Shown in pieces: positions 4,716 to 10,778 of a stretch of 10,778 bases of DNA. The translations under genes were made by a program, and so were the position numbers. The stretch lies in the NCBI GenBank assembly GCA_000182565.2, contig KQ257451.1; one strand, given 5' to 3'. Below the pieces are notes generated by a model. That model was not told the origin of the DNA, searched no databases, and saw nothing but the letters and a program-made list of their open reading frames with translations. Numbering within the stretch: the stretch's first letter is position 1; every line of letters begins with the position of its first letter. The DNA comes from Spizellomyces punctatus DAOM BR117 (Eukaryota).

Positions 4716-5336
4716 ACTAGAGTATTTGTCACTTTCATCATTGTACATTATACGATACCTAACCATTTCAGTAGTGCTTTTTTATTAATATACCAATATC
4801 ATGCACTTGCATCAAAACGTTTTGGCATCTGACGAAGTGGAGCTGTTTGGATATCACTCATGGGGTAATTGGCAATCGATATCCTGTTATCGTATCTATC
4901 GCATCTACGAGTGTCCAAAAAAGAAGCCCTGCGGTCGCCCTCCTGGACCCCTTTGAAGGTGTGATGACCATTTGTGATTATGTGAGCGCGTTAGTCATTT
5001 ATTTATCTTTTTCCCACGGTGCTCGAGTAGGATGAAAACGACCACCGTTTTGCACAGATGAAGAGCAGACAATGCAGAATATGGACAGCCTTTCAATGCA
5101 CAATGTCGTCTTGACCATGTCCAGTTGTTTTACGGCGGTTGCAGTCGACAAGGTTCGTCGTGAACGGAATTTCCGCGGAAGAACGAGCGCGTCAAGGAGA
5201 TGCCAGGGGTAGAAGCACGTTCTACAGATCAACGTCGATTGGTGCTACTCGCAAGGGACTAGAACGTCATCGTCTTCTCGAGAGAAAGAGCTTACGTTGC
5301 ATGCCCCACAACCCCAAAAGCGCAGTCGCCCTCGGT

Positions 5337-5344
5337 TATAAAAA
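5337..5344 (+). promoter_or_regulatory. TATA box (TATAAAAA) upstream of the K-turn array
   Basis: Consensus TATAWAWR inside GC-rich flanks, ~55 nt before the first hairpin, with no credible protein-coding ORF downstream on this strand. Confidence 0.55.
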
Positions 5345-5392
5345 GGCACCCTTCCCTCGCCCCCCCGCTTTTGAACTTCACCGGTTGACGCT

Positions 5393-5890
5393 GACTGCAG
5401 ACCCGCGATGGTTGGGGCGGCTGCTATACCAATGATGTCTTCGGACGGAGGTATACCTGACGATGCCTTCGGGCGGAGGGAGGACCCGTGGTTGAGATGG
5501 ACTGTAGTCTGCGCTGGTGTGGAGCAGCTACTTATATCCCAATGATGCCTTCGGGTTGAGGGATATAACCCAATGATGTCTTCGGGCGGAGGGAGGGCCT
5601 GAGTGGGTGGTTGCATGGACTGCAGTCGCGATGGTTGGGGCGGCTGCTATACCCGATGATGCCTTCGGGCGGAGGGAGGACCTAGTGGGGTTGCATGTGG
5701 GTGGTTGCATGGACTGCAGTCGCGATGGTTGGGGCGGCTGCTATACCCAATGATGCCTTCGGGTTGAGGGAGGACCTTGGTTGAGATGGACTGATAGCTG
5801 CGTTGGTGTGGAGCAGCTACTTATATCCGGATGATGCCTTCGGGCGGAGGGATATAACCCAATGATGCCTTCGGGCGGAGGGAGGGCCTG
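5393..5890. repeat. Imperfect tandem repeat of five ~80-115 nt units containing eight copies of CC-RAT-GATGYC-TTCG-GRYKGA-GG
   Basis: Core copies at 5425-5455, 5456-5480, 5532-5568, 5569-5593, 5652-5676, 5746-5770, 5821-5857 and 5858-5882. 5603-5654 is identical to 5697-5748 (52 nt), and 5489-5601 is near-identical to 5778-5890. Confidence 0.97.
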
Positions 5891-5906
5891 GGGGTTGCGA
5901 AAGTTA

Positions 5907-5912
5907 AATAAA
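5907..5912 (+). terminator. Candidate polyadenylation signal AATAAA
   Basis: AATAAA 25 nt after the last K-turn, at the abrupt change from G-rich to A-rich sequence. The A-rich tract may instead, or also, be the U-rich 3' end of the minus-strand JHY gene. Confidence 0.4.
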
Positions 5913-6019
5913 GGAAGAAAAGATCCAAAAGATAAATATGTTTATTGAAAACGAAAAATAATTCCATCCAACGTCCTTTGAACATCCCAATCATCTTCAT
6001 CCAGTCGCACCATTCTAGT

Positions 6020-8748
6020 TCACAAGCCCAGTTCTTTTCTTATGTTTTCCACAGCCTCCAGACCTCTCTCGTGCTCTTCCTCCAATTGTCGCAGTTCATC
6101 CTGTTCTGCCATAACAGCCGCTGTCAGATCTTTTGCAGACTCTCTGGACGTCCTTACCGGAGATGATGATGAGAGACATAAAGTAGGTTTCTTGATGGTG
6201 GACGCGTAGGCTTTCATCTGTAATCAAAGTCAGCTTATGGGCGTTCTGTGCGGTTGGGACTTTGCAATGGAATGACCTTTTCTCTCTTGGCAATCGCTTG
6301 CTCCAATTTGTCAGACGACGCAAGTTTAGAGCCAATGAAAACCGACGCAGGTTGTTTCTTCCTTCCCTTTTCTGCGACCGACTGTCTCTGCTGAGGCGAC
6401 GGAGAAGGACTCATTCTTTTATCTCCAGAGTCACTTCGTGCCGAATGTGCTCGTGCTGCGGTGGAAGTTTGGGAGTGCGGCCGGAGATCGGGCTGACTCC
6501 TTGAATCGGAGACGTTATGGGGAGTGGTGCGTGTGATGGCTCGGATTTGGGCGCCATACTCTTTTTGACGTTGCCATTTTTCAAGCTGTATTTTCACGGT
6601 TCAGATGAATGTCGCTGATGAAGAATACAAATCGACTTTTACCTTGGCTTTGTACTCTTCGCTTCCAATATCTGGGCCCAATCCACCTAGTTTGACCGGC
6701 TGTACGATCTTTGTGGTCTGTCGCGGCGTACGTTGATAGAGGGATACAGATGAGGACCTCGTCGAAGGTTCGTGATCTTCGGCTGCTCTTGCGACATTTG
6801 TTTTGGTAATTTGAAGCCCTTGTGGTGGATCATGTATTGGAGGTAAACTAACCGTTTCGGTGGAAGGGATGGCATGGGAACGAGCTCCCATATGCGAACC
6901 GAGTGAGGGAGACATGGCACCTGCAGGGATTGGAGTGAAGGATGTACTTGCCGATTGCCGTGCGGCAGGTAGAGGCGGTAACAAAGGCATGCTTCCATAC
7001 TCTGCATATGTATTTGGTGGTTGCATGATAGGTTGGTGTGGGGATGGGGTATATGCGTATGGGCTCTGCATGTTCATCCGTATTCCAAACGTTCCTGTAG
7101 TGCCGCAAGTGTAGACGGTTGGATCTTGACCTGCAAGGACGTACGGATATCTAGGTGCTGATGATGGCTCATGGTGATCCGGTTTACGGCACCCAGGCCA
7201 TAAGCCAGCTGTTTCTCTCAGCCTGTAATCATTCAGCGTAGGCTGCGACCGATACTTTGGTAAATGAGATGCTGATGGGCGCGATGTCGACAATGCTGGA
7301 GAGCTATTGTATTGCTTGTTTTCAGGGGCGTTCCGAACTCGTAGTGATGAGTGCTGTAGTGCCCTAGCAGAAGGATTCCCTCCATAGGAGCTTTGAGATG
7401 AGGACCGGCTTTGGGGTTGTTGGTGTGCAGGGTGTTTCGGTTGTGCGTGGGGCGGTACGAAAGAGAAGGAGAAAGCGGATGGCCGTGGGTTGCTTGGGAC
7501 GACACTTTGCTGGTTATGCGACCGTTCGGGTTGGTTTGCCGCCTGCTTACCATAAACATAGGAAGGGGCCTCCCTTTGCTGTACAAGTGGTTGAGGAGTA
7601 TTGGGAATACTTGGGAGACGGAGAACTGGAATAGATTCAAGATTGGGAAGATCGTAATCATCAGGATTCAAAGAGACGCTCGATTTGGAAGTGGAATCGG
7701 CATGGTCATTGTCGCTATCTTTACTACCGTCTTGCGATGGTGACGTTTCCTTCTGCACATCCCTCTCTGACGCTGCCTCTACATTCATCTTCCAGACAGT
7801 CGATTGCACAGCTTCTGTCATCTCTTTCATCGCCTGAAAGGACCAATTTGGGTATTTCCGCAGTACTCGCAGGGCTGCACTTTTTAGGCTTTCAGTTTCT
7901 TCGGTGTTGGAGGTTGCTTGTATTTCCGAGATATCGTGCGTGATTTCAGGTGACGTGAGAGTTGTGGTTGAAGGCATGTGGGGCAATTGTGTAGAAGCAA
8001 TATTCCTGCCATTTCAACCATGGAGTTAACAAGGTGAAATTTGCGGAAAAAACCTGAGATATAAAACCTACTCTGTGGGGTTCATGACACTTGCGTCCTG
8101 TTTCAAAACATTCCTGTTCTCCTCACTGGAGGTAAGTACATGGCTCTCTGTTGGTTGTGATAAACTCCATTGTGATTCAATCATGTTGACGTCCACATCA
8201 GCGCTTTTAACAGCTGATGTCTCAGATTGCTGTTGCTTCTTCCCTCTGTTGTCCCCTTGTCGTGATTTTCCTCTAGAGGAGAGTCTTTTGTACTTTACTC
8301 GAGGTTTAAGAGAATGTGAAATCGATGGAGAACTCTTCCATCGACGCATCGACGCGGATGAAGCCCTAGGTGCGAGGCGTTTGGATGGAGCAACTGTTAG
8401 TGGCATGTTCTTTTTCCCGTTCACAATTGGGACGATGCTGCCGTCACGGGCGATCCGAGAGACCCTGGAGCCAAGCTGTCATAAAAGTTTTATGCACGTC
8501 GGTTAGCTGAAATAGATATGCCGTACGCATATTGGGTGATTGATACCAACTTTTATAAGAAATGCATCATGGGCTGCAGTCGCTTGTGATACGGCGTTGT
8601 CCAAAGGTGATCGCACATTAGCGGACGATAAGGTCGCCTCTGGTAGCATTTCAACACTGCTTGCGTCACGATGCGTATAGTACCGTTGCGCCCGAGGTAA
8701 TGGAATACCACTGCCCAAGAGAGTGTCCTCGGAAGGTTGATTGTTCAT
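6020..8748 (-). CDS. JHY: JHY-domain (C11orf63/DUF4591-like) cilia/flagella-associated protein, ~823 aa, largely disordered. Exons 8748-8551, 8475-8072, 8005-6643, 6585-6277, 6217-6020
   Basis: Five adjacent minus-strand ORFs join in frame through introns 8550-8476 (GTTGGT..GCTAAC..CAG), 8071-8006 (GTAGGT..GTTAAC..CAG), 6642-6586 (GTAAAA..CAG) and 6276-6218 (GTCATT..GCTGAC..CAG). The C-terminal blocks VKLGGLGPD..K/LEKWQRQKEYGAQIR, KREK/MKAYASTIKKP and LRQLEEEHERGLEAVENIRK match my recollection of the JHY C-terminal domain. The rest is S/P/Q-rich low complexity. Confidence 0.75.
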
Positions 8749-9747
8749 TGTTTGGTTCCTGGGGGATGTAGAGTGTTAAGGATTTGGCATCCGGGCGGTA
8801 ACGGGCCACGTATGATTAGGGATCTCTATGTCTCCCCGAAACCACCTTTGACCAGACTTTCATCCTAGCTGTACCAAAGATGGAACATATCGGATCTTTC
8901 AACATCCTTAATTCCGGCCTTGATTAATGATCGACCGTGGCGTTCGCGCACTGGCGGGCCAATCTTATCGCGCATTGACAGCAAACATCAAGGAAGAGCA
9001 GATGTGAGATGATACTATAGTCGGATGACTGCTCGAAGGAAAATAAGTCAAGTAGCATCAAACCATGACGATATCCTGGTTTATTGAATGATGCCTCGAT
9101 TGAGATAATGCAGAATCGCGCCCCGTAAGCAAGTTCCGTAAGCAACCGTTTTCAATTATTGGGCAGTTGCCAGAAACATTTGTATACAAATCGTTCAACA
9201 ACTGTAGTAGCCGACACAAATCTACTAAAAGATCTGACGAGTATGGAACGATACAATGAGCGTTGTCCCTGCAAAAGCACCATTGCTCCGACTGCCCTTG
9301 GTGACCTACTACTCTTTCAGTAGCGATTAAATTGCATTTTGCATTGGTGAACGATCCATCTCTTGTTAATTTACGTTTATTTTCAAGAGCCCAACAGGCT
9401 ACTCGCATAAATTCGCCCATAAGTAGCGCATGGGGCCATAAAACCAGCGTTGTGGCCAGCCGATCGCAATAGCCCAAAACAAATCCTAAAATTCGATTAT
9501 TCCGTGAATCGAACTTTGCCATGCAGCACAGTCATGCCGAGTGGCACAGTCACCTCAAGGGGTGTGTTTTAAGCCGAAGTTTCGATTCACCACGTTGGGC
9601 GACAAGGGCTGGGCTGGCAAGGTGGAGGCTGTGGGCGGAAAACCACTTGGCAACACCTGTACAATTCCGTATTTAAGCTGAGTGCTCATCCCGCTTCCCC
9701 CGCTTTCCCTAACCAAGTCGCATTCCGGTCATCCTCGAATTCCTGTC

Positions 9748-10778
9748 ATGCATGTCCCCACATCCATTATTCTCGCGGTTGCCGTTGCGGCTGCACCAGC
9801 GCTCGCAGCCTTGTCTGACTGCCAGAAATCTATTGTCCAGCAACTGACAAATACATATGAAAACAGTCAGCTCAACTTTGCGTTTGATTACTGCGAGAAT
9901 ATTAAAGATGGAAGAGGATATACTGTTGGAATTGTAGGGTTTACAACGTATGTTTTCCTTGTGCTCGTGTGTAGGCATATCAGATAGACCCTCTAACCTC
10001 ACACCATCTCCTCCAATCTCCATAGCGCAACACGGGATGCATTCGATGTTGTCAACACATATACCAAATCTTCAAATTACACGGGGGAATTTGATCCCTA
10101 CTATGACCGCCTAAAGCAACTCAATCAAACAGGCGATTCATCAACATCCGGGTTGAATGGTTTCTGTGATGCTTGGTACACAGCCTCATCCAACCCAGCA
10201 TTCCGAGCAGTCCAGGTCGCAAAAGCCGATACACTCTACTACGTCCCCTCACAAGGCTACGCTGAACAGCTCAACCTGAATTTGCCAGTCTCCAGAGGCC
10301 AGTTGTACGATGCGGCCATTCAGCACGGCACGGACCCTGATCCTGATTCTCTACCTTCGATGATATCGCGGGTTCCAAAACCTTCTGATATGGATGAATT
10401 GACATGGATAAGTAACTTTATGAAAGAACGCACTCGCACGTTGTGTAACACCGCGAATAAGGCGACACAAAAGGCGTGGTGCCAATCTACTTCCCGTGTG
10501 CGATCATATCAAACCATTTTGAGCAATAAGCCAGATTTTAACGATACAGTGGACGCACTGGACAATGATGGAAAGCCTCTGACAGTGCAGTGTGATTTGG
10601 GACTCTGGACGAGGTACATTCCTGGCCCGGCTGCCGGCGGAAAGGCTGGATTGTCGGGTGCAGCCGTTGCGGGTATCGTTATTTGCATTTTGTTGGTAGT
10701 GGCGGCCATTGCGTACTTTGTGTACAGGCGGTGGAAATCTGGAAGCTGGAGACCGGTGGGAAAGGGATCCTTGGTTTG
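9748..10778 (+). CDS. Glycoside hydrolase family 46 chitosanase with signal peptide and C-terminal transmembrane helix. Exons 9748-9947 and 10026->10778 (3' partial)
   Basis: Signal peptide MHVPTSIILAVAVAAAPALA. GH46 signature YENS...YCENIKDGRGYTVGIVGFTT with candidate catalytic Glu (9859-9861) and Asp (9907-9909). Phase-2 intron 9948-10025 (GTATGT..CTAAC..TAG). Exon 2 gives ATRDAFDVV, FCDAW..A..NPAFRAVQ, LYY.PS, GQLYDAAIQHG and DELTWISNFMKER, then TM GLSGAAVAGIVICILLVVAAIAYFVY-RRWK. No stop before the window end. Confidence 0.92.

Follow-up and report, generated by a model that had tools for sequence, protein, structure and literature searches.

To our knowledge, the K-turns known in eukaryotes occur once or twice per RNA (U4, U3, box C/D snoRNAs and rRNA). 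The U4 5′ stem-loop is a K-turn bound by Snu13/15.5K. CsrB/RsmZ and NORAD are multivalent protein-decoy RNAs, whose single-stranded motifs are directed to one protein. In the available text of two sources, C:G at −1b:−1n and U:G or U:U at 3b:3n are given as standard K-turn values, C:G and U:G promote folding in Mg2+ while G:C at 4b:4n hinders it, and all tested K-turns fold when L7Ae binds (PMC5689011, PMC4382518). In riboswitch K-turns, the role of the kink is to direct a long arm into a tertiary contact (PMC5689011, accessible portion), and recruitment of Nop58 depends on the sequence of stem II, beyond the binding of 15.5K (PMC4242836, likewise in the accessible portion).

The locus considered here lies in a 10,778 nt stretch of Spizellomyces punctatus DAOM BR117 DNA (contig KQ257451.1; the window), and has eight predicted K-turns in groups of 2, 2, 1, 1 and 2, distributed over five units with one hairpin at the head of each. 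Spizellomyces is a soil chytrid fungus. An earlier note had proposed a hairpin, one or two K-turns and AGGRCC as the repeat unit. This is supported, and the unit is transcribed; GACU precedes each unit and GGGAGGRCC stands at its end in all five, as had been claimed. What had been missed is GGUUG after GRCC, the full unit being GACU, hairpin, K-turn(s), AGGRCC, a short spacer and GGUUG. With a model of the unit, the five copies score 77–89 bits and anything else in the window 11 bits or less. Units U1, U3 and U4 are of one type (A), and U2 and U5 of another (B); identity is 96% between U3 and U4 and 91% between U2 and U5.

Judged from their letters, all eight K-turns (+ strand) conform to the standard motif, a 3-nt bulge with G·A and A·G between the C helix and the NC helix. 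Unit 1 has, at 5425..5480, K1 with a C helix of 6 bp and K2 with one of 3 bp, both under a cUUCGg cap; unit 2 has K3 (9-bp C helix) and K4 at 5532..5593; K5 is at 5652..5676 and K6 at 5746..5770; K7, in which G·G beside the bulge is followed by 8 bp, and K8 are at 5821..5882. Pairing is found in 41 of 42 helix cells. The helices are supported by two double changes, both from K1, a count that is matched in 18 of 500 shuffles and is of a kind inflated by relatedness. At −1b:−1n C:G is present in six of the eight, at 3b:3n U:G in six and U:U in two, and at 4b:4n G:C in six. Since the K-turn arm here is a UUCG cap, a docking role would be the plainer reading.

The five hairpins of about 8 bp that had been claimed are confirmed with 8 standard pairs apiece (40/40), all on the + strand: H1 (5397..5424, type A with a 2-nt bulge), H2 (5504..5531, type B with a 1-nt bulge), H3 (5622..5647, type A, 8 bp without a break), H4 (5716..5741, identical to H3) and H5 (5793..5820, type B with a 1-nt bulge). 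H1 is the weakest predicted, its pair probability being at most 0.21 in every model. That a hairpin precedes every K-turn module is true of each of the five units, but not of three of the eight K-turns; because a hairpin heads each unit, five K-turns directly follow one. The loop is 10 nts long in units 1, 3 and 4 and 11 nts in units 2 and 5. Of the G-rich sequence said to be shared, both UGG are invariant, whereas the base after the first UGG is variable (C in read variants as against U in the window). Position 2 occurs as all four bases, and with the read variants included the consensus is G-N-UGG-N-(G)-UGG-R.

That the array has a gene of its own, giving an abundant non-coding RNA some 540 nts long (5390..5930, + strand, with G5390 as 5′ end and an approximate 3′ end), is well supported. 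RNA run X19 has 4,374 mapped reads in the window; the array takes most of them, almost all on the + strand, and first-mate orientation agrees with the sense of both flanking genes. Summed array depth is 13x and 24x that of the two neighbouring genes, an estimate from one raw-read run that has end-biased coverage and includes reads from other copies. Depth is 180–720 across 5390–5839, 72 at 5840–5926 and 0 at 5231–5317, and on the + strand it drops from 72 to 8 past 5926. As depth per strand does not exceed 1.2 across 4970–5317, the array RNA is not read-through. Loose ends before 5389/5390 are found in 1,016 reads, and by bin arithmetic 1,398 reads start at 5390 compared to a depth of 1,399 at 5433, so nearly all 5′ reads begin at 5390. 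The loose leading letters of these reads resemble barcodes, and the ends at 5389 would be a chance match of the last base. A likely TATA box, TATAAAAA (5337..5344, + strand), is 53 nts upstream of the RNA 5′ end, and the candidate polyadenylation signal AATAAA (5907..5912, + strand) is shortly upstream of where coverage stops. Probably, the RNA is made by RNA polymerase II and polyadenylated. Weak second support for transcription comes from run X9, in which there is a single 155-nt contig identical to 5500–5654, plus a spliced MTC6 joint; run X8 reaches only the 3′ edge of the array. No splice joint is present within the array in X19, compared to three in the flanking genes, and a reading of the GT...AG motifs in the linkers as mini-introns was rejected on that ground. 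No reading frame is kept across the units. Downstream of the TATA box but ahead of the RNA 5′ end, a C-rich tract (5348–5368, + strand) has complementarity to the G-rich 3′ strand of the K-turn together with the AGG tail (predicted duplex −32.6 kcal/mol); in a longer transcript it would unfold a K-turn, but it lies outside the observed RNA.

The array is between a + strand MTC6-family gene (PF25506; 2762–4800), whose reads stop near 4800 and whose splice joints in RNA reads are 4127/4195, 4408/4468 and 4645/4709, and a convergent − strand gene ending near 5930–6020. The latter is Ser/Pro-rich and spliced (6020–7986, − strand; joint 6217/6277), and has no Pfam match in the three pieces scanned. 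Its 3′ end and that of the array RNA overlap in antisense near 5930. Further out are a DUF3712 gene (819–2210, + strand), with a product 95% identical to a protein of Spizellomyces sp. ‘palustris’ (the remaining named matches are chytrids), and a GH46 chitosanase-like gene (9742–10778, + strand) with a signal-like N terminus and a C-terminal hydrophobic stretch.

Reads indicate more than the window itself contains. In DNA run X20 there are 11 variant positions in 5177–5333, none of them inside the TATA box, more in the array and none in the flanks (among 40 of 41 rows). Mean X20 depth is 12.6 over 5057–5926 compared to 7.5 and 5.2 alongside, though as X20 is a ChIP library, depth by itself is ambiguous. 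The clustering of the variants points to a second copy, promoter included. RNA reads of X19 have linked differences not present in the window, and 44 reads depart from its sequence beyond 5683, continuing into a short tail whose last letters are A's. The array copies are likely to form a small expressed family, with a strain difference as the alternative. Among 29 listed array differences, nine are on modelled pairs; four keep or restore pairing and five break it. The pair-breaking difference at 5652 is explained by K1-like reads placed on K5, and a DNA variant at 5874 that breaks the K8 closing pair is in 3 of 10 DNA reads and 1 of 95 RNA reads. Changes to G at 5641, 5645 and 5739 that are confined to RNA (10–20% of reads; 0 of 19, 0 of 21 and 0 of 7 DNA reads) would disrupt hairpin pairs. 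Poor base calling may be the cause, though unit 1 has the same context and is without such changes. At loop position 2, A>G at 5631 is in 148 of 315 RNA reads versus 1 of 18 DNA reads and A>C at 5725 in 77 of 195 versus 0 of 10, while A>T is a DNA variant and the equivalent base, 5408, has no listed difference. The RNA/DNA mismatch at these two positions could be due to other copies, editing or base modification. In 5559–5579, RNA reads differ by insertion of a G, loss of one base and G in place of the 3b base (169 of 423), which points to another expressed copy whose predicted K-turn has G·G at 3b:3n.

Searches for relatives gave little. With Rfam 15 there are no matches in the window at E up to 5 (U4, T-box and ribozyme families included), and none with ARAGORN. 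Neither the double nor the single K-turn pattern is present in the viral contigs; the double pattern is absent from the prokaryote genomes, and its three matches in metagenomes are all chance. The loop pattern had at least 120 matches in one scan and 4 in another, and unit model R1, in which the K-turn structure is out of register so that it is less sensitive to diverged K-turns, gave no more than 23 bits on 87 of 127 loci; in view of the 77–89 bits of true units, these loci are taken as chance. There was no match by blastn to phages and plasmids, and protein searches with the minus-strand open frame, for mis-called genes on related arrays, had either no match or two unrelated repeat proteins. 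Viral, metagenomic, prokaryotic, phage and plasmid collections thus contain no homologue, none of them being a set of fungal genomes. In the literature, subscription papers and supplements aside, no description of the array RNA was found.

How then does the array compare with the described systems? A SECIS element, with its long helix II, apical AAR motif and location in a selenoprotein 3′ UTR, was rejected since here the NC helix is 3–4 bp, the loop is UUCG and the RNA is separate from the upstream gene. A telomerase template was also rejected, the resemblance to the telomeric repeat being just 6 bases. Like CsrB/RsmZ and NORAD, the array RNA is an abundant stand-alone transcript in which hairpin units recur, their loop motif being conserved, and its repeated modules are putative binding sites, as for a multivalent decoy or scaffold; unlike them, each unit couples a K-turn to a second, different loop. 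The LSU rRNA P-loop, which binds tRNA CCA, offers another likeness, in that the type A loop plus 3′ arm fits a 13-base degenerate pattern that also matches bacterial 23S rRNA. However, the pattern fails on type B units, its match runs across the boundary of loop and stem, and patterns this short often occur by chance; the resemblance is treated as coincidence. The U4 5′ stem-loop is similar in its three-base bulge, tandem G·A/A·G, short non-canonical helix with small loop and C:G at −1b:−1n, but has one K-turn rather than eight and a 3b:3n strongly biased to G-C/G-U instead of U:G/U:U (PMC4382518, in the text available). As there is no Rfam match, U4 and U4atac snRNAs were rejected. With the box C/D K-turn there is a C-like AUGAUG and a D-like NNGA in common, with 4b:4n G:C in six of eight and 3b:3n U:U in two (PMC5689011, in the text available). 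The array stem is, however, closed immediately by UUCG, the C-like and D-like strands being joined by a 3–4 bp UUCG hairpin, and there is no guide of 10–21 nts 5′ of the D-like box. Exact CUGA is absent from all window K-turns, the combination of U:U at 3b:3n and G:C at 4b:4n is in none of the eight, and Rfam has no match; a box C/D guide snoRNA was consequently rejected. Assembly into a complete snoRNP is not expected, since none of the K-turns in the window carries the whole box C/D signature. Judging by read differences at 5445 and 5447, one variant copy appears to combine U:U with G:C. The T-box riboswitch also has UGGN in an unpaired element and an L7Ae-family K-turn within one RNA, but is a bacterial cis leader with specifier, T-loops and antiterminator (PMC7583486, accessible text), none of which is found in the array, whose UGG is in a terminal loop instead of adjoining a helix. 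With no Rfam match and UGG 2 nts off the stem, where a T-box has its UGGN beside helix A1, a T-box was rejected.

Folding predictions do not distinguish the array by stability. The array region is no more stable than shuffles (z −1.47), and for the hairpins with GACU leader, 7–60% of base shuffles fold equally well. Stem-exact hairpins have z values of −3.5 (H3), −2.6 (H5), −0.5 (H1) and −1.3 (H2), and predicted hairpin stability by itself is not above chance. In unconstrained global folding the probability of all five hairpins is 0.02 or less, as inter-unit pairing displaces them. With a pairing span of at most 60 nts, it is 0.87–1.0 for H2–H5 and 0.2 for H1; with a credit of 5 kcal/mol per K-turn in global folding, it is 0.75 for H3, 0.78 for H5 and below 0.1 for H1, H2 and H4. 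Because global folding displaces the hairpins, the modelled modular fold would need co-transcriptional folding or a bound protein. The type B loop of unit 5 (5802–5812) is complementary over 10 pairs to the linker/C-helix strand of unit 1 (5423–5434; −12.8 kcal/mol), which may be promiscuous G/U pairing. G4Hunter scores reach 1.5–1.9 at three unit ends (5584–5608, 5667–5691 and 5873–5897, + strand). The unit 2 and unit 5 ends contain four runs of at least 3 G, and from their composition a quadruplex there could compete with the last K-turn.

Is the hairpin selected, or is it a passenger copied by tandem duplication in an array where only the K-turns, or nothing, are under selection? The C-G to U-A swaps on both arms that had been noted amount to two double substitutions, but both stem from one split between type A and type B, a single branch, and so are not five independent tests; the apparent covariation is real but thin. 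In simulations with 4–5 random stem substitutions, retention of all pairs together with two double changes has P 0.001–0.04, and all pairs are kept at all in 0.4–15% of trials, depending on transition bias, these values being weakened by delimitation of the stems after the fact. With transitions only, the probability that all pairs are kept is 0.11–0.15, which with the ordinary stability of the hairpins and the closeness of U3 to U4 and U2 to U5 suits a passenger. So does the context of the swaps, both of which are transitions, one falling within CpG in each arm and the other within CpA in each strand. Context-driven mutation (C to T), or hairpin-templated repair, on both arms could in this way mimic compensation, and cytosine methylation occurs in Spizellomyces. 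The distribution of change is harder to reconcile with a passenger. Variable columns number 3 of 11 in the loop and 0 of 4 in GACU, but 7 of 16 in the stem (two of these reflect one gap placement) and 6 of 7 in the linker. That the loop is less variable than the stem is supported and is what would be seen for a putative displayed binding site. There are three separate bulges, yet 8 pairs remain intact. A read variant of H2 with five linked differences (20–22 RNA reads, with four of these differences shared by 3 DNA reads) differs from every unit of the window; one A-U is replaced by G·U in the stem, and the other changes are in the bulge, at positions 2 and 6 of the loop and at its final position, but again both UGG and all pairs are kept. 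On this thin covariation the hairpin is probably functional, and that it is a passenger we consider unlikely, with a real minority share of our belief.

If the loop does have a partner, this could be RNA, with UGG pairing to tRNA 3′-CCA or the GG doublets of two loops forming a two-tier G-quadruplex. The two invariant UGG with a variable base after the first are as such pairing would have it, and T-box UGGN pairs with tRNA NCCA in an RNA with an L7Ae-bound K-turn (PMC7583486, in the accessible text). In the T-box, though, UGGN directly abuts the helix (same source and extent), while two bases intervene here; there is no specifier or T-loop module by Rfam, and three or four pairs alone are very weak. 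The high G4Hunter scores that would favour a quadruplex come from K-turn 3′ strands, whereas the loops score 0.96. An RNA partner is accordingly doubtful. Poorer still are the prospects of the unit as a switch, in which the loop 3′ end would pair with CC(C) of the next K-turn until binding of an L7Ae-type protein frees the loop. The free duplex of type A loop and CCCAA is about −9.9 kcal/mol, 3–5 pairs are possible in every unit by inspection, and archaea provide a precedent for protein-induced folding of a K-turn stem-loop (PMC6298567, available text). However, the complementarity of loop UUGGG to CCCAA, from which a pseudoknot had been suggested, is confined to type A loops and is exact within its own unit solely in unit 4. 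The proposed pairing consumes the K-turn C helix and bulge, making it an alternative fold that excludes the K-turn, and in unit 4 it comes out weak, 2.7 kcal/mol worse than hairpin plus K-turn even without credit for the kink. In addition, the C helices of K1, K3 and K7, of 6–9 bp, should dominate, the K-turn needs CC anyway, and the type A linker from the 8-bp stem to its target is only 4 nts. There is a slim chance at best that a small peptide is translated from the RNA. A 45-codon frame opens at the first AUG, which is at 5408 within the H1 loop, 18 nts from the 5′ end, and has G both at −3 and at +4, but the A of this AUG is at the loop position that occurs as all four bases, and K-turn and hairpin spacings keep no frame, the modules being in different ones. 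Hardly credible is a self-cleaving ribozyme or processed small RNA, despite the very sharp 5′ end 53 nts past the TATA box, since there are no upstream reads, coverage is continuous, ribozyme families in Rfam give no match at E up to 5 and the best 7 of 303 loose-end rows include no end piles at equivalent places in units 2–5; known ribozymes were rejected on these grounds.

The reading that we favour, at about even confidence, is of a multivalent RNA scaffold or decoy, with a predicted L7Ae-family protein on the K-turns and a predicted second partner on the loop. The units would fold locally during synthesis. The K-turns, closed by cUUCGg three or four pairs past G·A, have no arm to steer and would instead dock an L7Ae-family protein (Snu13/15.5K most likely, eL30 possibly), whose binding would shield the local fold from inter-unit pairing. 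The hairpin would keep the G-N-UGG-N-(G)-UGG-R loop open for the second partner, most likely a protein, which would thereby be set beside the L7Ae protein five times per RNA.

That the array represents a new class of K-turn-array RNP, whose unit has two partners of whatever kind, is a somewhat less than even prospect. A more specific version by analogy, that Snu13/eL30-type proteins on the eight K-turns and UGG of the five hairpins would make a new eukaryotic RNP capturing uncharged-tRNA 3′-CCA, T-box-like but in trans and multivalently, is a long shot; if true, it could, for example, serve tRNA storage or sensing in translationally silent zoospores. If the hairpin is a mere passenger, the finding reduces to a K-turn array. 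The small size of the gene, its mapped 5′ end and the apparent further copies make pull-down and probing straightforward. Many copies of Snu13, or of a relative, could be bound by an RNA that is highly expressed and has eight K-turns plus a second repeated loop; this could have effects on the assembly of snoRNPs, spliceosomes or ribosomes, or nucleate an RNP body.
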